Positions 14,406-41,238 of a stretch of DNA of 64,000 nt are shown one piece after another (the first letter of the stretch is position 1; every line of letters begins with the position of its first letter). This DNA comes from an uncultured cyanobacterium (GTDB lineage: Bacteria; Cyanobacteriota; Cyanobacteriia; PCC-9006; JAAUQQ01). Position numbers and translations under genes: made by a program. Under the pieces are notes generated by a model that did no database searches, was not told the DNA's origin, and was given only the letters and a program-made list of their open reading frames with translations. The DNA lies in the NCBI GenBank assembly GCA_963718615.1, contig OY970368.1, forward strand, positions 5,600,001-5,664,000, read 5' to 3'.

Positions 14406-14487
14406 AATACCGCAAGCTTAGGGGCTTGGGGATGAAAGCTAGAATAGACCTATGCATTGGACCCATCGCATAAGGACGGTCTTGCCC

Positions 14488-14952
14488 ATGGCTTCTCCCT
14501 TTCCGGGTATGGACCCGTATTTGGAACATCCTCGAACTGGGTCGAATGTTCACCATCGGTTGATTACGGCGATCGCGATCGCCCTCGCTCCCCAGGTAAG
14601 ACCGAAGTATCGGGTGGTGGTGGAGGAAACGGTATATCAAAAGTGGGAGCCGATGCCGATTACAGCTCCAGTGGTGATGTCGGCCTATCGGATTTTGGTG
14701 AGTGCTAGCAAGGCTCGGCCTCGGGCAGAGTTATATGCGTTTGGTCTAGCGGATCCGATTCCGGTGTTTGGGGTGCCGTTGGCGGAGGGAGATCCTTCCG
14801 CTCGGGTTGATCTGAGGCTGCTGCTGGATGGGATTTATGAGCAGTCGGGTTATGACTTGGTGATTGATTATCGTCAGTCTCCACAGCCGCCGTTGTCGGA
14901 GGTGGAGGGGGTTTGGGCTGAGGCTTGGTTGCGGGAGAAGGGGGTGATTTGA
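14488..14952 (+). CDS. DUF4058 family protein, short and probably internally deleted
   Basis: Family-typical N-terminus MASPFPGMDPYLEHP and C-terminus YRILVS..RPRAELYAF.L.DPIP.F.VPL; the usual central EILSP..K segment is missing. Confidence 0.7.
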   Translation: MASPFPGMDPYLEHPRTGSNVHHRLITAIAIALAPQVRPKYRVVVEETVYQKWEPMPITAPVVMSAYRILVSASKARPRAELYAFGLADPIPVFGVPLAEGDPSARVDLRLLLDGIYEQSGYDLVIDYRQSPQPPLSEVEGVWAEAWLREKGVI

Positions 14953-15571: not shown

Positions 15572-16366
15572 ATGGAGTTTGATCTGCGAAAGGCGATTAA
15601 CGCAATCTCAGATGTCGTTCAGAATCGACCAGTTCCACTTCGCGAATTCGACCAGATATATATGAAGGTCGCCGATATGGTTATCCAAGCGGAGTATGTG
15701 GCTCGTGTTTTTGACGACAAGGATGTCGTATTTGTCGGGGACGGTGATGGAATTGCACTGTCTGCTGCTCATTTAAAAGCTCAAAAGGTCATCAATTATG
15801 GCCCGCAATCAATTACTTTGCTCGATTTTGATGAACGGATCGTCAATTCTGTGCGGCGCTTTGGTGAAAAGCTTAGCCCTCACATCAAGATTTCATCACA
15901 TCTTTACAATGTGGCAGATGCATTACCTCCAGAACATTTTGGTGTATACGATGGGTTTCACATCAATCCGCCCTGGGGGGCAAGTAACGATGGGGAAAGT
16001 GTTATCGCCTTTTTTGAGCGTGGCAGTCAGGCAACAAAGGCGAAGAGTTTGGGGATTGTCGTTATAGCAGATGACCCTGACCTACTCTGGACTCAGGGAG
16101 TTTTACGAGATACGCAATGTCGTGCCCTTGAACTCGGATATGTAGTAGCCGAGATGCTGCCACAGCTACACCTTTATCATCTCGACGATGCACCTGATCT
16201 ACGGTCATGTTCGTGCCTATTTCGTCGTATTGATCCTAGTTGTATGCAGACTGTCTCGGAACCTCTTGAGTCGGCGCGGCTCGAAAATTTTTACGGCAAA
16301 AGTTCCCCGTTACGCTTTCGATACGTACGTGAGCGGACAACACTCAACACCGATAGAGAATCATGA
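15572..16366 (+). CDS. BpsA/DUF43-like (bis-aminopropyl spermidine synthase family) (dc)SAM-dependent transferase, C-terminus truncated by IS insertion
   Basis: REFDQIYM, VVFVGDGDGIALS (cf. BpsA GDDD loop), LLDFDERIV, YNVADALP, HINPPW. The stop codon TGA (16364-66) is the first three bases of the IS. Confidence 0.75.
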   Translation: MEFDLRKAINAISDVVQNRPVPLREFDQIYMKVADMVIQAEYVARVFDDKDVVFVGDGDGIALSAAHLKAQKVINYGPQSITLLDFDERIVNSVRRFGEKLSPHIKISSHLYNVADALPPEHFGVYDGFHINPPWGASNDGESVIAFFERGSQATKAKSLGIVVIADDPDLLWTQGVLRDTQCRALELGYVVAEMLPQLHLYHLDDAPDLRSCSCLFRRIDPSCMQTVSEPLESARLENFYGKSSPLRFRYVRERTTLNTDRES

Positions 16367-16437
16367 GGTGGACCCAATCGACTGAACAGATTTAACAGGA
16401 GACTAAGCTCTGAATTCTCCCCGGATTGGACCTCTAT

Positions 16438-17301
16438 TCAGCGACTGCTCTCAGCTGCACCGTCAAAGTAAATCTCATCCGGTGTTTTGTAATCCAACGA
16501 CTGATGCAATCTCAACTGATTATACCAGCTAAACCATTTCTTCACCTCCTGATTTAAGTGATTCCCATCCTCAAAACTCTTCAGATAAATCAGCTCGTAC
16601 TTCAGCGATCGCCACAGCCTTTCAATGAAGATGTTGTCATGACACCTTCCCCGTCCATCCATGCTCACCTGGGCTCCGGCTGTTCTCAACCTCTCGGTAA
16701 ACACCTTCGCCGTGAACTGAGACCCCTGATCTGAATTGAAGATATCAGGACATCCATATTCCTCCAACGCTTCCTCCAATGCATCCAAACAGAACTGCAC
16801 ATCCATCGTGTTCGAGATTCGCCAGCTCAGCACCTTACGGCTGTACCAGTCCATAATCGCCACCAGATAGAAATGCCCCTTCAGCACCGGCAGATAGGTG
16901 ATGTCCGTGCTCCAGACCTGGTTTACCTTATCAATCGCCACACCCCTCAGCAGATAGGGATATATCTTGTGCTCCGGGTTTGCCACAGTCAGCTTCGGCT
17001 TCGGATACAGCGTTTGTAGACCCAGCTTTCGCATCAACCGCTGCACTCGCTTGCGATTCACATCATGACCCTCTCTCTTCAACTGAGCCGTCATCCGACG
17101 AGAGCCATAGAACGGCATCTCCAGATACAGCTCATCCAAGCGACGCAGCAGTTCTAGCTCAGAGTCACTCACTGCTTTGGCACGGTAGTACAAGCTCGAA
17201 CGGCTGATGCCCAGTAGCTGACATTGACGCACCAGGCTCAACTCCTCGTGCTCTCGCTCTACCAGGGCTTTTCGCTGCTCAACCCCAGTTTGGCTGAGCA
17301 C
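16438..17301 (-). CDS. IS3 transposase OrfB (DDE/rve integrase core), probably expressed as an OrfAB fusion by -1 frameshift
   Basis: YGSRRM, NRKRVQRLMR, WSTDITY, FNSDQGSQFT, DNIFIERLWRSLKYE. Confidence 0.93.
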   Translation of the reverse strand: MLSQTGVEQRKALVEREHEELSLVRQCQLLGISRSSLYYRAKAVSDSELELLRRLDELYLEMPFYGSRRMTAQLKREGHDVNRKRVQRLMRKLGLQTLYPKPKLTVANPEHKIYPYLLRGVAIDKVNQVWSTDITYLPVLKGHFYLVAIMDWYSRKVLSWRISNTMDVQFCLDALEEALEEYGCPDIFNSDQGSQFTAKVFTERLRTAGAQVSMDGRGRCHDNIFIERLWRSLKYELIYLKSFEDGNHLNQEVKKWFSWYNQLRLHQSLDYKTPDEIYFDGAAESSR

Positions 17302-17582
17302 TCCGCTAAAAAATCCCGTTCCACCTTCAGCTTGCCGATTTGCCGATACAGCTCGTTGATTTCTGCCTGTTTATTCGCTTCCTCCTTTCCTCTATCAGAT
17401 GTCTGGCCTGAATCAAAGACGCTGCTTGCCCCTTCCAAGAGCTGCCTCTTCCACTGATGGATCAGCGTTGGATGCACATTGTGTTGGCTCGCCAGTTCCG
17501 GCACCGTCTTTGCCCCTTGCAAGGCTTCCAAGGCGATTCTCGATTTGAACTGGGCGCTGTACTGTCGGCGTTTCTTGCTCAT
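17259..17582 (-). CDS. IS3 transposase OrfA (HTH)
   Basis: KRRQYSAQFKSRIALEAL, ELASQHNVHPTLIHQWK, LYRQIGKLKVERDFL. Confidence 0.92.
   Translation of the reverse strand: MSKKRRQYSAQFKSRIALEALQGAKTVPELASQHNVHPTLIHQWKRQLLEGASSVFDSGQTSDRGKEEANKQAEINELYRQIGKLKVERDFLAECSAKLGLSSEKPW
17307..17313 (-). promoter_or_regulatory. -1 ribosomal frameshift slippery heptamer T TTT TTA linking orfA to orfB
   Basis: Minus strand GAT TTT TTA GCG is in the orfA frame; a -1 shift gives ..FSGVLSQTGVEQRK, which is the orfB frame. Confidence 0.7.
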
Positions 17583-17692
17583 CTTCTACTCCTATCATTT
17601 TTCGTGGAGTTTCAGAGCTTAACCCCCTGTCCAGTTTTTGGGGTCCACTATATCAGACCTTCTTTATACACTTGAAAAACTTGAGGTGGACA

Positions 17693-18265
17693 ATGGATGA
17701 CCAGATAAAGCAAGCAGGACTTATTTTTATGAAAGTTGGTCTGCATGCACAAGAGAGTATCGAAGATATTGTCGAGCGAAAGCAACGTGAATTTGAAGAA
17801 GCAGGCTCTATTTTTTGGGGCTATGGCGGTAATACTTGCCATCCACTCACTATGGTTCAACCGTTTGCAAAAGAGGTAGAAAAAAGTGGCAATCAAATTC
17901 TTATCGTTATGCAGAAGATGAACTCTAAACATGCTGCTCCACCAGAAATTGCTAAAGAGTACTCAGACGATGGTGTAAACTGGCAACCAATTCCCAAGGG
18001 TATAGAAGTTCGTGGGTCACGTTATGCACTAGTTCTGGATAAGCTTCGAGTCGAAGAGTTTGACTTGGATCTGGGTGAACTACAAGTTGGAATTGGACCT
18101 AGCCGTGGACGCAAAGCTGATCAATATTTAGTCGGTCAGGCGGACAAAGGATGCTTTCTTTATACGTCTCGGGAATCACCCATAACACAGGAGGAGCAGC
18201 CATTAAAACGTATCGGACTGGTTGCCAACGTTAAAGCACCTTATGCGGTTTTCCTCAAAAATTAA
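17693..18265 (+). CDS. Uncharacterised protein (paralog 1 of an unnamed family)
   Basis: ATG 17693 with RBS GAGGTGG at 17683-89; motifs MKVGLHAQESIEDIVERKQRE..GSIFWGYGG, SRYALV, APYAVFL. Confidence 0.8.
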   Translation: MDDQIKQAGLIFMKVGLHAQESIEDIVERKQREFEEAGSIFWGYGGNTCHPLTMVQPFAKEVEKSGNQILIVMQKMNSKHAAPPEIAKEYSDDGVNWQPIPKGIEVRGSRYALVLDKLRVEEFDLDLGELQVGIGPSRGRKADQYLVGQADKGCFLYTSRESPITQEEQPLKRIGLVANVKAPYAVFLKN

Positions 18266-18897
18266 CCAGATGTTGGGTATAGTAAGTTCCCTGTCACAGC
18301 ACGCAGATGATTGATGTACGAAGCTAGAGCCTCTTGCACTGACTCATAGTTTGCAGGAATAGTTACGCCAAATGCAATGTTCAATGCTTTATCGACATCA
18401 GGCTTCGATCTTACGCACTCTTGGACGTGAGTAAATTGATCCTCAACTAAGTACGAGAACAGCACTTCCATCGATATCACACGACCCGCCAGTGCATTGG
18501 CGAGGTAGGCGACAGATTCATGAGAGCAAAGCGCTGCTAGCGATCGCTTATCGCCCGTAATGATAAGTGCATCTCTAGCAGTAGCACCTACTGCAAGCAG
18601 CAAGGCTTCTCCGGTGTCGATATTTTGTACCGCACTCATTGCATCCAATAGATCTGGGTCAGCCAATCTAGCATCCAAGGACTTAGCGATTTTGAGGAAT
18701 GATTCTAGCCTAGAGTAGCTCTCTTCATCCTCACAAAAAAGCAAGCGATTTTTGGCGGGGAGGAGGACGTATTTTGCAGTCGCAAGCACCCGTACATCCG
18801 TGATTGTGAAATCGAATCGAGCTATGACCTCATCAAGTAGCCCGTAACGTGCAAGTTTAATTAAGGCATCGTTATCGATCAGAAACAGCCGATCCAT
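18262..18897 (-). CDS. PIN-like domain protein (putative nuclease/toxin)
   Basis: PIN-type acidic motifs LIDNDALIKL, IDTGEALLL, IITGDKRSL. ATG at 18897, or GTG at 18909 overlapping the upstream stop. Confidence 0.7.
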   Translation of the reverse strand: MDRLFLIDNDALIKLARYGLLDEVIARFDFTITDVRVLATAKYVLLPAKNRLLFCEDEESYSRLESFLKIAKSLDARLADPDLLDAMSAVQNIDTGEALLLAVGATARDALIITGDKRSLAALCSHESVAYLANALAGRVISMEVLFSYLVEDQFTHVQECVRSKPDVDKALNIAFGVTIPANYESVQEALASYINHLRAVTGNLLYPTSG

Positions 18898-18905
18898 GAA
18901 CGACC

Positions 18906-19952
18906 TCACTCAAGGTGCGATCCAGTAACTCTACCAAGGAATTCCAGGGTTTCCATCGGCAAGGTTTCAGGGTTGATGTGACCCCACATCGCTGCATTAA
19001 TAATTACTGGTGCGGGTGGATTCCCACCTTGCAACACCTTTGCGGCTGCAATACCCATTTCCCATTTCCCGGACTGATTCGCAAAGTTCAACACAATGTG
19101 TCCAGGATCGATGTGGTGGTTCTTGCCAAATCTAAACGCTGAATCAGCTAGTTCTCTGAAATTAACGTGACTATCTGAGGGAGTATAAGTCGCATCAGGT
19201 CTAGCGTTTAATAGCTCGATCGCAAACGCATCAGCCGTACGCTCGTCCAAATCGGCATCCTTCAGAGCGTAGGAGTCCTCGCTAAGCTCCTCATCAATCA
19301 ATATTTCATTGGGAGCCACATGCCCCAGCGCCAAGTGAGCGACTTCATGAGCCAAAATAAAGAGTTGCCACGCCCAGAGAGGAGACGCTTTTGACAAAAT
19401 GATGACGGGTCGGCTGTCCGTATGAATCACCATGCCATCCATTTTCGCTACACCGATGCCAAGTTCAGCCAGATAAATCACAGGCACGCCATGCAACCAG
19501 CAAAACAGGAGTAAATTTCTCAGCCCTAGCCAGTTACCTGGAAAGGAGGTCAGCACCTCTTGACGAAGAGCATTAGCACTACTGACAAACGGAATAAATT
19601 CTACACCACAAGCTGCTGCAACGGATTCCGCAACGCTAACTGCAATTGCTGTAGATGCCGTCAAGTTCTTCGCCTTGTTTGGAATTGAGCGCTTGTATTT
19701 CACGTCACGTCGCCGAAGCGATTCGACTCGTGGACTTGCATCAAAAAGAGGACTAGTACGAAGACCAAGCCGCTTTGCGAGAATCGCCGCAATTTCTAAC
19801 GATGCCGAGGTATCTGATAAAACTTCCGGTGTCACCCATTCGGGGAGCAGCACATTTTGTATGCTGCGTGGGAAGCCAGCAGATTCCAGGGAAACAAAGA
19901 TCCTATCGATCTGATGATTAGATGTGTCCGCGTGAATCTCCTGCTGTGTCAT
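18906..19952 (-). CDS. ImmA/IrrE (Peptidase M78-like) Zn metallopeptidase
   Basis: DGMV...RPVIIL, WQLFILAHEVAHLALGH (HEXXH), downstream ERTADAFAIELL. Confidence 0.85.
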   Translation of the reverse strand: MTQQEIHADTSNHQIDRIFVSLESAGFPRSIQNVLLPEWVTPEVLSDTSASLEIAAILAKRLGLRTSPLFDASPRVESLRRRDVKYKRSIPNKAKNLTASTAIAVSVAESVAAACGVEFIPFVSSANALRQEVLTSFPGNWLGLRNLLLFCWLHGVPVIYLAELGIGVAKMDGMVIHTDSRPVIILSKASPLWAWQLFILAHEVAHLALGHVAPNEILIDEELSEDSYALKDADLDERTADAFAIELLNARPDATYTPSDSHVNFRELADSAFRFGKNHHIDPGHIVLNFANQSGKWEMGIAAAKVLQGGNPPAPVIINAAMWGHINPETLPMETLEFLGRVTGSHLE

Positions 19953-20289
19953 CTACTTTTCTGGTTAACCCTTTCAGGCACTTAATCACTGCAAGCAAAG
20001 CTTTCCCGCCTGCCTCTGTTCCGTCCCATACATCAATAATAGCGTCTCGCAGTAGGTCATCATATCTATGACTAGCTTTACAATCTGTAACAGACAGCAC
20101 AGCATAGAAATTGCATAGCTTATTGAATGACTGGCTGATGCGCTGACGCTTCCCATCGAATCGTCGCATACGCGAAACAGTTGGCTGACTCACAGAGGCT
20201 AGTCGAGCGATTTCACTTGAGGAGCGGCTATCAGCTCTTAGGCAGGATAGTAGTTGTTGAACCACCAATTGAGTTTGGTCATTTGTCAT
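19918..20289 (-). CDS. Small helix-turn-helix DNA-binding protein
   Basis: SSSEIARLASVSQPTVSRMR HTH signature; overlaps the peptidase start by 35 bp. Confidence 0.75.
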   Translation of the reverse strand: MTNDQTQLVVQQLLSCLRADSRSSSEIARLASVSQPTVSRMRRFDGKRQRISQSFNKLCNFYAVLSVTDCKASHRYDDLLRDAIIDVWDGTEAGGKALLAVIKCLKGLTRKVDDTAGDSRGHI

Positions 20290-20358: not shown

Positions 20359-21171
20359 ATGGACACGATCATGAAAAAAATTCCCCCGACATTTTGCTGG
20401 ACTAAAATGGGATCTGAAGCTGGAGAAGAGTTGACGGCAATTATTCGTAGGAAGGAGTGGGAACGCCAATTAGGTGGTGGATACTTCTTTTGGGGAATTG
20501 GTCAGTCTCTCGGTGAAAATGCTAAAGTTGTAGCCCCTAAAATAGCTTCTTTACATGTGATTTTTTCACCAATGCCCAGCAAGCCTAAGCTAATTGATGT
20601 GGCACCGAATGATGTGGCTATATGGAACGCCTGGATTGATGCACAAGGCGTGGTAAGAAGATTGCCACTTCATTGCTTCATCACGAGTCGCGCATCTTTA
20701 CCCTCTGGCAGGAAAAAAGAAAGTCATTATGCTTTGGTGTGTTTCTCCGATCAGGAATTGGATAAACAGAGTAATGAAATCTTTATATTTCCAAACCACC
20801 TTCGCAATGTAGCAACCAATAAACCTCTTGGAGCATCACAGGTGACAGCTGTTGTTCATGCCCCAAATCTGGGAGATAAAACATCTGATGCCAAAAGCTA
20901 TTCTGTTAGTTTTACTGCTGAACTTCGTTTACCCTATTGTGTACAACTAGCTCAGCCATTATTGCTAGATGTGGAGGAACTTATTGAAATTAAGAAAATC
21001 ACAAATTTAGGTGATACTGAATCGTGGAAAGCTCTGGTTACATCTATCCGTTCTCGTATGATAGAAGAAATAAATTGGGTGCAATGCACATTAGATTTTG
21101 TTAATGAAGATGACTCATCGTTCACTGATAGCCTGAGTGTGCTTCATTGCTCTGGATATAGCAATGTATAG
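20359..21171 (+). CDS. Uncharacterised protein (paralog 2 of the family at 17693)
   Basis: WTKMGSEAGEELTAIIRRKEWE..GGYFFWGIGQS, SHYALV, LPYCVQL match the motifs of 17693..18265; about 70 extra C-terminal residues. Confidence 0.8.
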   Translation: MDTIMKKIPPTFCWTKMGSEAGEELTAIIRRKEWERQLGGGYFFWGIGQSLGENAKVVAPKIASLHVIFSPMPSKPKLIDVAPNDVAIWNAWIDAQGVVRRLPLHCFITSRASLPSGRKKESHYALVCFSDQELDKQSNEIFIFPNHLRNVATNKPLGASQVTAVVHAPNLGDKTSDAKSYSVSFTAELRLPYCVQLAQPLLLDVEELIEIKKITNLGDTESWKALVTSIRSRMIEEINWVQCTLDFVNEDDSSFTDSLSVLHCSGYSNV

Positions 21172-21743: not shown

Positions 21744-22106
21744 ATGGTATTAACAAGAGACTTCAAAGAAACAGTGAATGAACGAATACAACGAAATCCT
21801 GAATTCGCAGCATCTCTTCTGGATGAAGCTATTTCTCTTTTTCTCAAGGGTGAACCAGAAACGGCAAGACTTATTTGGAGAGAACTCGTAAATGCAACTG
21901 TGGGTTTTGAAAAACTAGCAGTCGAAACTGCTAAACCCAGCAAAAGCCTTCACCGGATGTTATCTGCAACAGGCAATCCTACAATGGATACTCTGACTAG
22001 TATTCTTAATGTTCTTCGTAAGACTCCGTATGTAGATATAGGTAGTCCTATTTCGGTAAGGATAGCCACAACCCCTTTCACGCAGAGTTTTCAGCGCTTA
22101 GAGTAA
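21744..22106 (+). CDS. Addiction-module antidote / HTH antitoxin (HigA-like)
   Basis: MVLTRDFKETVNERIQRNPEFA, VNATVGFEKLA, KSLHRMLS..GNPTM. Confidence 0.8.
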   Translation: MVLTRDFKETVNERIQRNPEFAASLLDEAISLFLKGEPETARLIWRELVNATVGFEKLAVETAKPSKSLHRMLSATGNPTMDTLTSILNVLRKTPYVDIGSPISVRIATTPFTQSFQRLE

Positions 22107-22405
22107 ACTTTATAGACCTGAAGTATCCTGGATTTTCTCACGGTTTTACAGCCACAAAGCCAAGATATTCACGAAATAATAGGTGCTCTGGGCCATCTCA
22201 TCGGCAGATACTTACCCTTTTCTACAGAGAAAGAAATTTGTGAAACTGGTGCTGATAGAGAGTTTCAGCCATCCTTACCTTTGGATCACTACCAAGCGTT
22301 GAAGAGGGCTGGGTTAAGGGAAAAGCTGGCATTGTGGTTTTATGCTTCAAAGAGGGCGAGTCGGTATAATTGAAAGTAAGGTCTAGAACCAACCGTTGCG
22401 CTACC

Positions 22406-22618
22406 ATGCAGATCACTCTGAATCTTGATGAGTCTCTTCTCAATGAAGCCCTTGAACTGACTAATCTTTCCACACAAGAAGAGTTGTTAGTCTTAGCTTT
22501 GCGCGAATTGGTGCGATCGCGGCGCAAGAAAAATCTTCTCGACCTCGCGGGAAAAATTCAGTTTACCGAGGATTTTGATCACAAAGACCTGCGTGAGACT
22601 CGTCATGCTGCTGATTGA
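22406..22618 (+). CDS. vapB: Type II antitoxin, VapB family
   Basis: MQITLNLDESLLNEAL...ALRELVR...LLDLAGKIQF; overlaps the vapC start. Confidence 0.85.
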   Translation: MQITLNLDESLLNEALELTNLSTQEELLVLALRELVRSRRKKNLLDLAGKIQFTEDFDHKDLRETRHAAD

Positions 22619-23003
22619 TACCTCGGTTTGGATCAGCGTCTTCCGCGATCGCACAGGTCAAGTCCGCCAAAAACTCGAAACACTGATTGACGATCGTGAC
22701 GTCTTCCTGGCGCGGTTCACTCAGCTTGAATTGCTTCAGGGGAGCTTGAACGAAAAAGAGTGGACGCTTCTTTCTAGCTATCTTAAAACCCAGGACTACG
22801 TGGAACTAACGAATGACTCTTGGCAAGCAGCAGCGCGGATTTTTTATGACTTGCGTCGTCAAGGGCTGACTGTTCGGAGTCCGATTGATTGCTGTATCGC
22901 TCAAGCTGCTTTGGAGAATGATTTACTGTTGATTCACAACGATCGCGATTTTGAGACAATTGCTCAAGCGAGATCGCTACAACACTTCCACTTTCAACCT
23001 TGA
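22605..23003 (+). CDS. vapC: PIN-domain toxin, VapC family
   Basis: LIDTSVWI, ELLQG, DCCIAQAA, HNDRDF. Confidence 0.9.
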   Translation: MLLIDTSVWISVFRDRTGQVRQKLETLIDDRDVFLARFTQLELLQGSLNEKEWTLLSSYLKTQDYVELTNDSWQAAARIFYDLRRQGLTVRSPIDCCIAQAALENDLLLIHNDRDFETIAQARSLQHFHFQP

Positions 23004-23263: not shown

Positions 23264-23794
23264 ATGCATCCATCTCCCTGGAAACTTCCTCTCTTCCTCG
23301 CAGTCACCAGCATCCTAGCCAGCCTCGGTCAAACCGCCCAAGCCAGCGAACAGCCACTCGCGCAAGTGGTGCGAGGTTGTCAGTTTGGTGATTTTCCCAA
23401 ATACTACTCCCGCGTTACCACCAACCAAGGCGATCCCCTGCGCGTTCGCTCAGCCCCCGCAGGCTCTACCATCGGCTCAATCCCCAATGGCTGGGCCGTA
23501 GTCGTCTTGGAATGGAGCCGCAATGGCGTTTGGGCCAGAATCACCAGTCACTTCGGTAATATTGGCGAATTTGGTTTTGCTAGCGCGCCATCCTTCCGGG
23601 AGGGTTGGGTCTCTGCTGCCTACCTCAAAGACCTGGGGCGGTTTTGCGAAAAACCCACGAGCGCCGCTCAGCTCATCCAGCCAGAATTGTTAGGCACCCA
23701 ACCCATTGAAGTCGAACCCGATTGGCTCGCCCTCGCAGATGCGCTGGCCATCCCCCAGCAAGCCAATGCCAGTCTAGATGCACCAACGCAATGA
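23264..23794 (+). CDS. Secreted SH3b-domain protein
   Basis: Signal peptide (..QTAQA); PLRVRSAP...IGSIPNG..V.V....WARI...EGWVSAAYL. Confidence 0.75.
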   Translation: MHPSPWKLPLFLAVTSILASLGQTAQASEQPLAQVVRGCQFGDFPKYYSRVTTNQGDPLRVRSAPAGSTIGSIPNGWAVVVLEWSRNGVWARITSHFGNIGEFGFASAPSFREGWVSAAYLKDLGRFCEKPTSAAQLIQPELLGTQPIEVEPDWLALADALAIPQQANASLDAPTQ

Positions 23795-26144
23795 CCGCGC
23801 GATGACAGCCAGGATTGACGAAACTCAAGAGGAGCGATTGCAGGCGGTATTGGTTGCGGCGGCGCAGGCACCGGGGAATCGACAGCGGTTTTGGGCTGCG
23901 GGATTGCTGGATGAGGCTGGAAAGCTGGTGGCGGATTGGCAGACAGCCTTTGCGCGACTACGACCTTTGACGAAAGCTGAGTTGCGATCGCAACCCGGCC
24001 AGTTCCTCTCCCAAGCCCAAGACATCGTTTTTCGCGGCAAAACCAGCGGCACCCAGGGCGATGCCTTCACCTATTTTGCCGGAGCCCAGTGGAACCAAAA
24101 ACGCATCGAAGCCCGCCAACGCAGTCTGACTTGGTGGAGAATTGAGCAAACGCCGATGTTGAACTTGGCCAGTCGGCTTGCGCCCGTGCGGCTTCAGGAC
24201 TCCAGCTTGGTGGGACCCGTGGACGAACTGTTTTTGCAAACCTTAGTACAGGTTCTGGATGCTGGACCCGTGGTTTTGCGGGGATATCCCAGTCGCTTGT
24301 GTGAGGTGGTGATCGCCCTCCACCATCACCCCAGCCGACTCAATCCTGAAGCGATTCAAGCGGTGATGACTACTGGGGAATGTTGCTTTGAAGCCCAGCG
24401 ATCGCTCCTCCAAACCACATTTTCCGCGCCGATCATCAATGAATATGGCTGTCAGGAATCGGGACTCTCAGGGCTAAGTTGTCCGGAGGGCGAGCGGCTG
24501 CATTTGGATGGCGATCGCTGTTTCTACGAAGTCATAGATGGCCAACTGCTGACTACAGATCTCTATAACTACACCCTGCCCATGGTCCGCTACAGCAGCG
24601 GCGATGTGTTGGATTTTTACGCGGATCCCTGTCCCTGTGGACGGCCTGGACCGACAGCGCGGGTGCTGGGACGGCAAGAAGAGGAGATTGCGATCGCGGG
24701 TCAGCGGCGATATCCGGGGGAGATCGAACTGCCCCCCTTTGCGGGGATTTTGGCCTATCAAATTCAGCTGGGGGAAAAAGGGATGCGGGTTTGGGTTCAG
24801 CCGGAAACCACGGTGACGCCGGAGCAACTGGCTCAGTTCAAGTCCGGTTGTACAGCGGCATTAGGAGGGTCAAAATCGCCCGCATCATTGCCCGAATCAT
24901 TGCCCGCCATGGCAGCATTGCCCGCCCTAGAGGTTGTGCTGGAGTCTCCAGCGACGGTGTTGGCCCAGGCGCATGGAGGATCTGCTCCCAATTCGGTGCT
25001 CAATGCGGTGAGCAGTACAACTTGGCTTCGACAGGTCACGGAACAGTCTTGGGAACATTGGCTGAATCAGCCCTTGCCCTGGGGAGAGGCCCAGGAGATC
25101 GCGGTTTTATTGCAGGAATTGGTGGCTCCGCGCCAAATCGTGACCCAGGGGTTATCCTCCCAGGTGCGGGCACAGGTCCGGTTCCAGGTCCGAGCGTTAG
25201 CAGCGCCGCTGCACAGCGAAAACTGGGCCTTGGAGGCCCTGAGGCTCAGGGTATTGCTTTGGGCCACGGGGCTGATGGCCGGGGAGGATTGTCAGGATAG
25301 CGCCTTAGAGGCAGAGGCATTATATCGGTTGCTGATGCAGCGTATTGAGGATTTAGCCGAGAATTTAGAGGAGAAACGGTTAGCGGAGCACTCTGCCTTA
25401 GGGTTAGATTTGCTCGCCCCATTACTAACGCTGGAGCGGTCAATGGTGCGATCGCTGTGGCCCAACGTTCGCGATCGCCTCCAGCAGCTCTGGCCCTCAG
25501 GGCTGCGCCCCGATCGGTTGACGATGCATCACTACCTAGCCGTTTTAGATCAAGCCGGTCGAAAAGCACAGCGTCAGCCCCATCCCTGGGTCCCGGCCCT
25601 ACGACCGCTGGCGGCCCTATTGTTGGGGGATTTATCTCGATTTTCGGCACAGTTGAATGGGGCGATCGCCACGGCTTGGATCGAAATGGTGCAGGCTTGT
25701 CCAGGGGAGTTAGTGTGGCAACTGGAAAGCGAGCCGCCGGGAGAACTGGCGTTTTGTCAGGCTTGGTTGGTGCATCGACGGGTGTTGTTGGGGGGAGAGG
25801 CAGAGGAGATCGCGCGATCGCTGGCACAACTCTTTGACCAAGCCCAATCTCCACCGCAGGTCTCCCAGGCTTGGCTAGAAAAAGGCTATGCAACTTTGCT
25901 TCTGGGGGACGCCTTCAATCTGGATGAATGGCTGGAGATTCTACAACCGCAGTTGACGACGAATCCTATGCCCTGGATTCCGCTGCTCAATGCCCTTGCG
26001 CCTCAGCTAGCGGCAGCTGGAAAGCTGGACTGGGCCTATGCCTGTCTGTTTGCGGCGGCTCCGCCCGATCGCCATCGCTCCCAGTTCGATCGCCAAACCC
26101 GAGGCGTTAATCACAAACAGTCGATTATCAAAGGATTACGCTGA
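23778..26144 (+). CDS. Phenylacetate-CoA ligase/CapK-like adenylate-forming enzyme with long C-terminal extension
   Basis: LTKAELR, KTSGTQG, GYPS, TTGE, NEYGCQESG, TDLYNYTLPMVRY..GD, CPCGRP, LGR. About 400 further residues are unassigned. Start may be ATG 23802. Confidence 0.75.
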   Translation: MHQRNDRAMTARIDETQEERLQAVLVAAAQAPGNRQRFWAAGLLDEAGKLVADWQTAFARLRPLTKAELRSQPGQFLSQAQDIVFRGKTSGTQGDAFTYFAGAQWNQKRIEARQRSLTWWRIEQTPMLNLASRLAPVRLQDSSLVGPVDELFLQTLVQVLDAGPVVLRGYPSRLCEVVIALHHHPSRLNPEAIQAVMTTGECCFEAQRSLLQTTFSAPIINEYGCQESGLSGLSCPEGERLHLDGDRCFYEVIDGQLLTTDLYNYTLPMVRYSSGDVLDFYADPCPCGRPGPTARVLGRQEEEIAIAGQRRYPGEIELPPFAGILAYQIQLGEKGMRVWVQPETTVTPEQLAQFKSGCTAALGGSKSPASLPESLPAMAALPALEVVLESPATVLAQAHGGSAPNSVLNAVSSTTWLRQVTEQSWEHWLNQPLPWGEAQEIAVLLQELVAPRQIVTQGLSSQVRAQVRFQVRALAAPLHSENWALEALRLRVLLWATGLMAGEDCQDSALEAEALYRLLMQRIEDLAENLEEKRLAEHSALGLDLLAPLLTLERSMVRSLWPNVRDRLQQLWPSGLRPDRLTMHHYLAVLDQAGRKAQRQPHPWVPALRPLAALLLGDLSRFSAQLNGAIATAWIEMVQACPGELVWQLESEPPGELAFCQAWLVHRRVLLGGEAEEIARSLAQLFDQAQSPPQVSQAWLEKGYATLLLGDAFNLDEWLEILQPQLTTNPMPWIPLLNALAPQLAAAGKLDWAYACLFAAAPPDRHRSQFDRQTRGVNHKQSIIKGLR

Positions 26145-38733: not shown

Positions 38734-41238
38734 CTAATTCAAGAAGCCTTGCCACTGGGTGATCGCCTGTTGGGCGGCGGGGTAGACTTCCATATCTGGC
38801 GGTACGAGGCGGGCGGCGGCGATCGCCATGGCCCACTGACTCTGTTTGGCGCGCTGTTCGGCAATGTTCAAAATCTCGCGACTCCAAGCTTGCCGGAGCT
38901 GGTCGGCTTCGGCGGTGGTGGCGTTTCCTCGGGGAATGCCTCGGGCGATGGCGATCGCCTGGTTATAGGAAGAAGCCTGACCCGGACGCACGACGGCTTT
39001 GGCGTACTGGAGCTGAGAGGGCACTTGCCACTGACTAATGCCCTGCTGGGCGGCGGGGTAACCGGCGATATCGGGGGGAACCAAACGGGCAGCGGCGATC
39101 GCCCCCAAATAATCCCCTTGATTGGCCCGCTGTTCGGCCATGGCAACGATGTCGCGGCCCCAGCGATCCATGGCAGCACGGGCCTGTTGATAACCGGGGT
39201 CGGTGGAGGGGATGGTGCGAGCTTGGGCGATCGCCTGGTTATAGCTAGAGGCTTGACCGGGTTTGACTAGACCGGCTGCGGTTTGGAGGGCGGGGGAAGG
39301 CGGCGCTGAGGCATTAGGAGTTTCAGCCTGGGAAGGGGAAGCTTGAGGGGATGAAGCTTGAGGGGATGAAGCTTGAGAGGGCGAGGCTGGGGGCGGACTC
39401 GCAGAAGCCGTTGGGCTAACCGCAGACGCTGGAGGCACTGGACTTGCAGAGGAACTGGGAGCCGTAGACGGTGAGGGGGAAGGGGCAGGGCTGGGGGTGG
39501 TACTAAAGCCTTGGGCCGAAGGGGTATTGCTGGGGCTGGGGCTGGGATTAGTGCTGGGATTGAGCTGTTCAGGGGGGCTATCGAGGTCGTTGTCTTTGCC
39601 ACGATTAAACATGCCCCAGAGCCCCAAAAGAGCCAGAAGCATCAAACCCGGCACCCAAAGTAGACGCGGCGTTAGCCAAGCAGGCCAGCCAGTACTGACG
39701 GGACGAGGCGTTGTGGCTTCGGTGGAATCTTCAGGGTCGAGGGGATCTAGTTCGATGATTGGCATACCGCCATCATCGTCCTCTTCGATGAGGCCACCGA
39801 AGCTTTCAATGTCAATCGTATTCAGGTCAATCGTATTCAGGTCGGGGGACGCTTGACCGGGGTCTATTCCATTGCTACCCCCACTCCAGATCAGGGCTCC
39901 GTCTGACCCGCTGTCTCCATAGGGCGGCGGTTCAGGGAAAATAAGGGAGGCTGTGGTGCTGGAATTATCGTTACTGCCGCTGTTGCTACTGCCTCCTAGA
40001 CTGCCTCCCGGATTACCTTCCTCGGGGGCCACAACCAAATCGGCCCATTGCCAGTTGGATCCCCCAGCCTTACCGTCTTCGTAGTCATAGACAACCGGAT
40101 TGCTCGTGGTCGTTCCATTGCCCAGGTCTAGTTCGTGGTCTTCTTCCCAGGCTAGGGCATAGGGATCGAGGTTGCCGTTGGTGTCGCTGTCAGAGGAGAC
40201 CGGATCGAGGGTGCCCGTTGGGGTCGGAACACCGGGTTCGTTGTCGAGGTTGAGGTAGGGGTCAGTGCTATTGCCGTTACCGTTACTATTGCCACTGCCG
40301 TTACTGTTACCGTTGGCATTGCCATTACCATTGCCGTTCGGACCGCCGAGATTGGAGTTTTCCCAGGTCCAGGTGCCAGCAAAGTCTTGGCCGAGGTCGC
40401 TGTCCGTACTGGTCGGAATGTAGTTGATATCGAGGGGCGTGATCGCGTCGCCTGCGCCGAGGATGCTGCTGCCGAGGGTGGTGCTGGTGCTGACGGTGCC
40501 GACGCCGATGGGTTGAGCGGGGGCGATCGCAAATTCCCCCACGGTCAGCGGACTTTGCAAGGGTCGCCAGTAATGGTTACTTAATTCCTCCATCCGATGC
40601 CGCAGATCTTGATCGAGGGCCTTGAGGCTGTCCACCGTTGGGTTTTGCAACGCTTCCAGTAGCGCCACGGTGAAAAATCCGTGCCGGAGCCCCGCTGCTT
40701 CACGGGAAAACTGGTCCTTTTGGGGTTCGCAGGATTGGAGCGTAGCAATGCCGTACTCATGGGCCAAGGCAGCGGTTTGAATCCCTACGGGTTCCGCTAG
40801 GGTGCCTTCGTTGTGGTTCATGTCCAGGAGCATCAGGATTCGCTGGGTGCGGGCTTCCTTGAACAACTGAAAAATTTCTTTGAACGTAATGCCGGTGGCG
40901 TCGGCCTGGGCGGGGTCGCCATCCACGGGCATGAGGTAGTCGGCCCCAAGGGTGTGGATGCCGTAGCCACAAAAGAAAACCCACAGTTCGTCGTCGGGCT
41001 GGAGGGCTTCATCCACAAGCCACTGTAACCATTGCAAAATCGTGGTGCGCAACGGAAAGGTGGATTGACCGAGATGGAGTGCTGAGGCGGTGGTTAGGAG
41101 GAGGCAATTTTCCGGGGCGATGCGATCGCTATCAATTAAATAGCGACAGAGGGCTTCTGCGTCGTTCTGGGCGTAGGTGAGGGATTGGAATGCTTGATAT
41201 GTATTGATGCCGATGGCGATCGCCCAATGCTTGCCCAT
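38734..41238 (-). CDS. Membrane-anchored caspase-like (C14) pseudo-orthocaspase
   Basis: WAIAIGINTY, L.YAQNDA; dyad positions read FFCGYG (His to Tyr) and LDMNH (Cys to Asn); acidic low-complexity linker, one TM, Pro/Ser linker, two C-terminal helical repeats GQASSYNQAIA. Confidence 0.85.
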   Translation of the reverse strand: MGKHWAIAIGINTYQAFQSLTYAQNDAEALCRYLIDSDRIAPENCLLLTTASALHLGQSTFPLRTTILQWLQWLVDEALQPDDELWVFFCGYGIHTLGADYLMPVDGDPAQADATGITFKEIFQLFKEARTQRILMLLDMNHNEGTLAEPVGIQTAALAHEYGIATLQSCEPQKDQFSREAAGLRHGFFTVALLEALQNPTVDSLKALDQDLRHRMEELSNHYWRPLQSPLTVGEFAIAPAQPIGVGTVSTSTTLGSSILGAGDAITPLDINYIPTSTDSDLGQDFAGTWTWENSNLGGPNGNGNGNANGNSNGSGNSNGNGNSTDPYLNLDNEPGVPTPTGTLDPVSSDSDTNGNLDPYALAWEEDHELDLGNGTTTSNPVVYDYEDGKAGGSNWQWADLVVAPEEGNPGGSLGGSSNSGSNDNSSTTASLIFPEPPPYGDSGSDGALIWSGGSNGIDPGQASPDLNTIDLNTIDIESFGGLIEEDDDGGMPIIELDPLDPEDSTEATTPRPVSTGWPAWLTPRLLWVPGLMLLALLGLWGMFNRGKDNDLDSPPEQLNPSTNPSPSPSNTPSAQGFSTTPSPAPSPSPSTAPSSSASPVPPASAVSPTASASPPPASPSQASSPQASSPQASPSQAETPNASAPPSPALQTAAGLVKPGQASSYNQAIAQARTIPSTDPGYQQARAAMDRWGRDIVAMAEQRANQGDYLGAIAAARLVPPDIAGYPAAQQGISQWQVPSQLQYAKAVVRPGQASSYNQAIAIARGIPRGNATTAEADQLRQAWSREILNIAEQRAKQSQWAMAIAAARLVPPDMEVYPAAQQAITQWQGFLN

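Follow-up and report, generated by a model that had tools for sequence, protein, structure and literature searches.

What does the catalytic domain of a branched-polyamine synthase do in a gene with no polyamine genes around it? The question is posed by an open reading frame (ORF) at positions 15572-16366 (+) of a 64,000-nucleotide stretch of DNA from an uncultured cyanobacterium (GenBank assembly GCA_963718615.1, contig OY970368.1, positions 5,600,001 to 5,664,000 of the forward strand). We call this whole stretch the window. The ORF encodes a BpsA_C-like transferase, and to our knowledge the BpsA_C family has been known only for making branched polyamines in thermophiles. We find that the gene has lost its 3' end and that it heads a conserved cassette of six genes. 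In the reading that we favour, to which we give not quite an even chance, it is a 3'-truncated member of a mobile clade with the BpsA_C fold, and its product is an S-adenosylmethionine (SAM)-dependent alkyltransferase that acts on the amino group of a base and is encoded in a mobile conflict cassette. Synthesis of branched polyamines is very probably not what this enzyme does.

The transferase belongs to the BpsA_C family

The frame is open throughout and comprises 264 codons and a stop. Its translation of 264 amino acids (aa) carries REFDQ (residues 24-28), VGDGD (55-59), DFDERI (85-90) and HINPPW (130-135), all four of which had been picked out in an earlier prediction made from the letters of the window (the original prediction). 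Within these motifs, GDGD occupies residues 56-59 and NPPW residues 132-135 (bases 15965-15976). Residues 10-214 match Pfam BpsA_C (PF01861, formerly DUF43) with 53.7 bits against a gathering score of 27 (E 2.3e-14), which upholds the earlier assignment to BpsA/DUF43. The gene is the sole PF01861 match of the 6.1-Mb single-contig genome, and an NCBIfam scan of the transferase returned no matching model.

Relatives were gathered in a one-genome-per-species scan that gave 240 pattern matches, of which 196 encode a relative; the best 80 were kept as loci. Setting aside the broken genes of L017, L018 and L023 leaves 77 members. These are mostly 273-285 aa long, commonly 278 aa, and within the clade identity is at least 46%. 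GDGD is kept in all 77, and motif IV reads NPPWG in 74, NPPFG in two and NPPYG in one. The motifs are therefore not chance, and two further elements of the original prediction, GDGD in place of the GDDD of BpsA and a motif of the amino-methyltransferase type, hold across the clade.

A family profile built from 48 members retrieves BpsA structures first (2QM3, E 2.5e-15; 5XNC, 1.3e-14; 6J27, 2.8e-12) and then METTL5 (0.008). The predicted structure of the intact relative L001 (predicted local distance difference test score, pLDDT, 89.3) gives the same order. Its nine top Foldseek rows are BpsA or the P. furiosus orthologue (2QM3), with E of 8e-15 to 4e-13 and query TM-scores (TMq) of 0.60-0.68. 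The next rows are the PH1948/METTL5 N6-adenine rRNA methyltransferases (E 3e-9, TMq 0.54-0.58). Since profile and structure both match BpsA, membership in the BpsA_C family is secure.

BpsA (EC 2.5.1.128; 5XNC, 5XNF, 5XNH, 6J26-6J28; 2QM3) is thus the top match in sequence and in structure and has the same Pfam family and catalytic fold. BpsA and the clade have R.FDQ in common, as well as the G-D-x-D loop, D(F/I)DER and, following strand 4, a PP motif; the flexible, acid-rich C-terminus of the clade may be a further likeness. Identity in the structural alignment is nevertheless only ~18-21%, and the N-terminal domain of BpsA (~125 residues) is absent. The alignments begin at about BpsA residue 130, and ~278 aa stand against BpsA chains of 371-375 aa. 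The remark in the original prediction that the protein starts almost at the FDQ motif is right relative to BpsA, as profile position 12 aligns to BpsA residues 130-133. The active-site loops differ as well. BpsA GDDD aligns with GDGD, so that a glycine stands at Asp159 while Asp160 is kept as D59 of the transferase. TDPPE of the T. kodakarensis enzyme and TDPVEG of the T. thermophilus enzyme align with NPPWG. According to a 2026 review (PMC12979288), two residues of the GDDD loop of BpsA, Asp159 and Asp160, hold the aminopropyl moiety of decarboxylated SAM (dcSAM) in position, and acidic residues of the flexible BpsA C-terminus carry this moiety in a ping-pong reaction.

The METTL5/PH1948 enzymes, the second structural tier, have NPP followed by an aromatic residue at the same fold position as the clade, and NPPWG aligns with METTL5 in the profile match. 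METTL5 also needs a small partner protein. In amino-group methyltransferases (N6-A, N4-C, N2-G and Gln), motif IV is (D/N/S)PP(Y/F/W) and follows strand 4. The clade differs from METTL5/PH1948 in motif I, where its loop is the acidic GDGD and the usual glycine loop is neutral. It also has ~70 additional C-terminal residues compared with METTL5-type enzymes, in which H.YHLDD..L.SC and FYG motifs are invariant. Over 76 members, the last 16 residues are 27% D/E against 15% overall, and model confidence is low there. Judged by sequence and by modelled structure, the proteins form a clade of their own within the BpsA_C fold family, distinct from the BpsA enzyme.

Divergent relatives and fusions

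When 1.84 billion representatives are searched by HMMER for the family profile, 945 match at E <=0.001, 404 at <=1e-10 and at least 150 at <=1e-30. Among near-length relatives there are 2278 protein clusters at 90% identity. In the 49 listed full-length matches that were read, the distant short proteins (~255-330 aa) mostly keep G-D-x-D and nearly all have NPP(Y/W/F). The divergent short BpsA_C-like proteins P0143-P0265 make up a larger clade with NPP(Y/W/F).

Several relatives are fused to other domains. AAA_17 proteins resemble nucleotide kinases, and an N-terminal AAA_17/AAA_18 kinase-like domain is present in three of the five longer-form matches (protein clusters), with GDGD and NPPWG kept in the two that were read. 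The divergent relative P0179 is fused to an EVE domain (PF01878, E 1.5e-14); P0205 is fused to a radical-SAM domain and P0272 to a Ser/Thr protein kinase. P0275 is no fusion; its gene appears to have been interrupted by a recombinase. Modified bases are the ligands of EVE domains (PMC7641849). The EVE and AAA_17 fusions point towards nucleic acids or nucleotides and away from polyamines.

The transferase heads a conserved six-gene cassette

The original prediction called the gene stand-alone, which does not hold for the family. Among its relatives, 62 of 75 pairs have a partner gene that begins before the transferase gene has ended, and in the remaining pairs the two genes are no more than 60 bases apart. 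The two genes are translationally coupled, and the transferase is the first gene of a conserved six-gene cassette. In a Solirubrobacterales metagenome-assembled genome, transferase and partner form one 467-aa frame (L057:5992-7395), which may be a true fusion or else an artefact of assembly.

The window holds all six genes. The partner (17693-18265, +) encodes 190 aa and has no Pfam family. It is followed by an operon on the minus strand. The first gene of this operon (19918-20289, -) encodes a 123-aa protein with a helix-turn-helix (HTH)-like region read from sequence alone. Directly downstream, with its start overlapped by the HTH gene, lies the gene of a 348-aa M78 (ImmA/IrrE-type) zinc peptidase (18906-19952, -). 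This gene shares a 4-base overlap with the last gene of the operon, which encodes a 215-aa PIN-like protein, a putative nuclease (18262-18909, -). The sixth gene (20359-21171, +) diverges from the HTH gene and encodes a 270-aa paralogue of the partner.

Using the window proteins as tblastn queries (E <=1e-5), we find the partner in 77 of the 80 loci, whereas 62 have the 270-aa protein and 56 the M78 peptidase. All-against-all clustering of the ORFs of the same loci adds the PIN-like protein (64 loci), the HTH-like protein (53 loci, median 117 aa) and an AAA_17 P-loop protein (22 loci); upstream of the transferase it groups nothing conserved in more than 9 of the 80. These counts are lower bounds, as many loci end at contig edges. 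The AAA_17 gene is placed before, within or after the cassette, depending on the locus; most loci, that of the window among them, lack it. Nine loci (including L030:5019-6004 and L037:245-1161) have a variant cassette, in which a short M78 protein (~190 aa, PF06114 E 1.7e-25) and a 131-aa protein, both encoded directly upstream of the transferase, stand in place of the long M78/PIN-like operon.

By hhalign, the 190-aa partner is a paralogue of the 270-aa protein (probability 98.3%, E 1.6e-14, 171 columns), and an invariant WG.G loop is kept in both. These two proteins and the 215-aa protein have no usable match in Pfam (E up to 10), in member-wise scans, in NCBIfam or among PDB profiles. The model of the 190-aa partner is confident (pLDDT 92.2), but it yields no Foldseek row at E <=0.001 against the PDB and none in BFVD. 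Of 20 structural rows for the partner, 16 are PUA-like readers of modified bases, the matches being weak, and a second structural look returned YTH and McrB-N rows only. The ESM Atlas offers PF24405, named 'Pua-like', on 16% of a fourth cluster. PUA-like Pfam families match none of 44 members of the 190-aa family and none of 37 members of the 270-aa family, and when the profiles of the two paralogues were compared by hhalign with P0179, which bears an EVE domain, nothing was found (EVE domain probability 0.2%). We hypothesize from the models that the partner possibly has a PUA-like fold of the YTH/EVE kind.

The 215-aa protein has the acidic pattern of PIN domains, with D12 and D14 nearly invariant and E101, D120 and D173 invariant. 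Pfam PIN matches one of 29 members, weakly (E 0.087), and no PDB match was obtained. Its named neighbours in the ESM Atlas are PIN, DUF3368 and PIN_13 at 0.91-0.92. The peptidase assignment comes from Pfam M78 (24 bits against a cut-off of 22) and from an HExxH motif (H202, E203 and H206) that is invariant in 28 sequences.

The cassette moves between phyla

The hosts of the cassette span at least 12 phyla, and from their names we take them to be mesophiles. Within the window genome's own relatives, the transferase gene occurs in one of 60 genomes and in none of seven genomes of the same family (62-93% complete). A maximum-likelihood tree of 75 loci and the window (L017, L018, L023, L057 and L028 left out) unites all 13 cyanobacterial copies and the window in one clade (99/91), which is nested among beta- and gamma-proteobacterial copies (100/99). 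Cyanobacterial and Pseudomonas copies are 77-79% identical. Tree and taxonomy are incongruent, with at least five changes needed for Pseudomonadota and four for Chloroflexota. The family moves horizontally between phyla. One Burkholderiaceae chromosome carries two whole cassettes (L027 and L028) that lie ~2.1 Mb apart and have identical match statistics.

Relatives are found in 5 of 72,556 plasmid records and in none of 50,697 phage records. In 13 of 21 loci scanned, mobile or defence-type genes lie within 6 kb. These flanking genes include type I restriction-modification with an AbiEii-like ATPase, HEPN, RES, Fic, a reverse transcriptase, VapE-like primases, integrases and a resolvase.

The window cassette itself sits between a DUF4058 remnant and a VapBC pair. 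The DUF4058 ORF (14452-14952, +) is 166 aa long, has its best stretch at profile positions 161-252 of 254 and is probably a remnant at the island edge. Directly after the cassette follow a VapB antitoxin (22370-22618, +) and a PIN/VapC toxin (22575-23003, +), preceded by a 120-aa ORF (21744-22106, +) with no Pfam family. Further along the window, two ORFs have no Pfam match at E <=0.001. One encodes 788 aa (23778-26144, +) and lies upstream of two glycosyltransferase genes; the other encodes 834 aa (38734-41238, -).

An insertion sequence has cut off the 3' end of the gene

Near relatives run 14 residues past the end of the window protein (DLLYTLEKLEVDNG in P0003). The window copy lacks these residues because an insertion sequence (IS) of the IS3 family, 1287 bp long, occupies 16365-17651 (-), with its junctions placed by comparison with the intact locus L001. 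Pfam identifies its orfA (HTH_Tnp_1; 17259-17582, -) and orfB (rve; 16438-17301, -), and its terminal inverted repeats are imperfect. The element begins directly after codon 264 of the transferase, whose stop codon, TGA, is made of the IS's own first three bases. Alignment with the uninterrupted L001 reveals a 3-bp target duplication, TCA, at 16362-16364 and 17652-17654, and duplications of this length are typical of IS3 elements. The displaced 3' end of the transferase gene (17652-17699, +) is intact. It consists of the duplicated Ser codon, 14 codons (DLLYTLEKLEVDNG) and a stop, and it overlaps the start of the next gene as ATGGATGA.

The original prediction had expected a protein of about 280 aa after repair. 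The length agrees with that of the relatives; the cause was different, as the frame is intact up to the IS and frameshift repair is ruled out.

The genome contains eight identical full-length copies of the IS and three partial matches. The insertion is therefore recent, and the copies point to an element that is currently or recently active. In the public run X3, one contig passes straight from 16359 to 17652 and lacks the IS, with 51 of 635 letters differing before the joint and 14 of 325 after it. A related organism therefore carries the intact form. The acid-rich C-terminal tail is exactly the part that the IS cut away, and the insertion also uncouples the partner gene. The module in this genome is therefore probably disabled. 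For this genome, the locus is an acquired accessory cassette recently broken by an active IS.

RNA-library contigs of run X1 cover 15707-16113 and 17836-18055, with 2-6 letters differing in each; they are short, metatranscriptomic and could stem from carried-over DNA. Small shares of the stretch (0.08 and 0.07) are represented in the two RNA runs, and nothing in them shows transcription in this organism.

The donor is more likely SAM than dcSAM

Were dcSAM an obligatory donor, the hosts of the cassette would be expected to make it. AdoMet_dc (PF02675) is found in 6 of 15 cassette-bearing isolate genomes (1/5, 2/5 and 3/5 in three batches), in a search whose control was positive in seven well-known genomes. 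The other nine make dcSAM less likely and therefore favour SAM itself. The eukaryote-type PF01536 was found in none of 10 genomes, but its control was positive nowhere and that search says nothing. The window genome has one AdoMet_dc gene, at 4,947,352, ~650 kb from the window. Consistent with the original prediction, no SAM decarboxylase or polyamine gene lies nearby among the window ORFs scanned, and in the 80 loci none is conserved beside the transferase. Of the three groups that had been proposed for transfer, methyl, aminopropyl and aminocarboxypropyl, aminopropyl looks the least likely. The absence of AdoMet_dc does not separate methyl from 3-amino-3-carboxypropyl transfer.

The idea that the enzyme was repurposed from polyamine synthesis gains indirect support from the separate clade, the mobile cassette, the EVE and AAA_17 fusions and the nine host genomes without AdoMet_dc. 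In the mechanism that we tentatively favour, SAM would donate an alkyl group, most probably methyl, to a base of RNA, of DNA or of a nucleotide, at an exocyclic amino group. Binding of the substrate would fall to the 190-aa protein as a subunit. The HTH/M78 pair may serve as a stress-responsive switch, and the PIN-like protein could be the effector, a nuclease. Together, the genes would make up a mobile module for conflict, either defensive or toxin-antitoxin-like, on the plan of the predicted (PIN)-GNAT-EVE/ASCH/AAA_17 systems with another transferase.

Several points weigh against this proposal. An acidic glycine loop is unusual for methyltransferases, and both aspartates of GDGD are invariant. 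The acid-rich tail of low model confidence recalls the aminopropyl-carrying tail of BpsA. The nine genomes without AdoMet_dc are not proof of absence, genome completeness being unreported. No system model of PADLOC-DB 2.0 fits the cassette, which draws weak and scattered single-protein matches only: mad2 for the transferase (1.9e-6) and capP (2.8e-6), PD-Lambda-2_B (2.9e-6) and RmrA for the peptidase. PADLOC gives no match at all for the 190-aa, 215-aa and 270-aa proteins. The family and fold of the enzyme, its motifs, the order and co-occurrence of the genes, the fusions, the horizontal spread and the IS disruption are directly established, whereas the donor, the acceptor, the role of the partner and the biological role are inferred.

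Alternative readings of the cassette

The likeness of its tail to that of BpsA keeps aminopropyl chemistry in play. The enzyme could still be an aminopropyltransferase that uses dcSAM, perhaps by an acidic-tail ping-pong relay, with a polyamine, a base, a nucleotide or a protein as acceptor. It belongs to BpsA_C by sequence and fold, D57 and D59 are invariant, D59 aligns with the BpsA D160 that contacts the aminopropyl amine, and the final 16 residues, like the carrier tail, are rich in acidic residues and modelled with low confidence. The window genome also has an AdoMet_dc gene. We nevertheless regard this possibility as doubtful in view of the glycine that replaces Asp159 in 77/77 members, the missing N-terminal domain, the 9/15 isolate genomes without a PF02675 match, the lack of a conserved polyamine gene in the 80 loci and hosts that, by name, are not thermophiles. 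The NPP(aromatic) motif also serves methylation of the Gln amide nitrogen in release factors, and the enzyme might instead be a protein methyltransferase of the HemK/PrmC kind (NPPY type), with the 190-aa and 270-aa paralogues as substrates at their W-G-x-G-(G) loops. Tight coupling to the 190-aa protein, the one fusion with it and the WG.G loop invariant in both paralogues fit this picture. The residue after the loop, however, is no conserved amide (N/S/G/T in relatives of the 190-aa protein, Q/N/T in those of the 270-aa protein), and for this reason a HemK-type Gln/Asn substrate in the loop was rejected as the main reading. The nearest structures outside BpsA are rRNA m6A (N6-methyladenine) methyltransferases, not HemK, and the EVE and AAA_17 fusions of relatives indicate nucleic acids or nucleotides. 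We think a HemK/PrmC-like role very unlikely.

The AAA_17 fusions leave room for a free nucleotide or small metabolite as substrate, in which case the transferase and AAA_17 might together make or destroy a signal or poison nucleotide that the 190-aa and 270-aa proteins bind or hydrolyse. AAA_17/AAA_18 is fused to the transferase in three protein clusters and AAA_17 is adjacent in 22 of the 80 loci, and some PUA-like (ASCH) proteins are nucleoside hydrolases. On the other side, AAA_17 is missing from the window cassette and from most loci and hence is not essential, and Pfam finds no nucleotide-binding or cyclase-type signalling domain in the cassette. The present data do not separate a free nucleotide from a polymer substrate, and we think the free-nucleotide version unlikely. 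Equally unlikely, in our estimate, is a bolder scheme, a writer-reader module for immunity or addiction. Here the transferase, of BpsA/METTL5 lineage, would mark a nucleobase with a methyl, 3-amino-3-carboxypropyl or aminopropyl group from SAM. The two paralogues, if YTH/EVE-like, would read the mark and, through the HTH/M78 switch, license or restrain the PIN-like nuclease. If true, this scheme would imply both a new base modification and a new self-marking logic in prokaryotic conflict systems.

Comparison with known systems

Our literature search, from whose coverage subscription journals are mostly missing, found no description of the clade or of such a cassette. The results indicate a large branch of BpsA_C doing something other than polyamine synthesis. 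It differs from BpsA in its hosts, mesophiles of many phyla, and in its setting, a mobile cassette rather than polyamine genes. If it is true that the enzyme marks nucleic acids, the cassette would represent an untested type of conflict system and possibly a source of a new base modification.

The HTH/M78 pair resembles the ImmR/ImmA, DdrO/IrrE and CapH/CapP switches of an HTH repressor and an M78 peptidase, as the HTH gene directly precedes the M78 gene, the two overlap and the HExxH of the peptidase is invariant. The weak PADLOC matches to capP and PD-Lambda-2_B add to the likeness with these switches. The cassette M78 protein differs from ImmR/ImmA-type switches in having long N- and C-terminal regions without assignment, and cleavage of the HTH protein is an assumption.

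The closest parallel in overall design is the (PIN)-GNAT-EVE operon, itself a prediction. Bell, Wolf and Koonin (2020, PMC7641849) describe these operons as having a second PUA-like (ASCH) protein, frequently an AAA_17 ATPase, and an HTH protein. In the cassette, a SAM-type Rossmann enzyme replaces the GNAT acetyltransferase, the genes are separate and there is an M78 peptidase in addition; support for PUA-like folds in the 190-aa and 270-aa proteins is weak. If the enzyme does act on nucleic acids, the cassette would be a bacterial counterpart to the (PIN)-GNAT-EVE systems, likewise only predicted. The two would have in common a transferase of chemical groups, a pair of PUA-like proteins, a nuclease of the PIN type, an optional AAA_17 protein, an HTH protein and a location in defence or mobile regions. 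Among the relatives of the transferase, moreover, one carries an EVE domain of its own.

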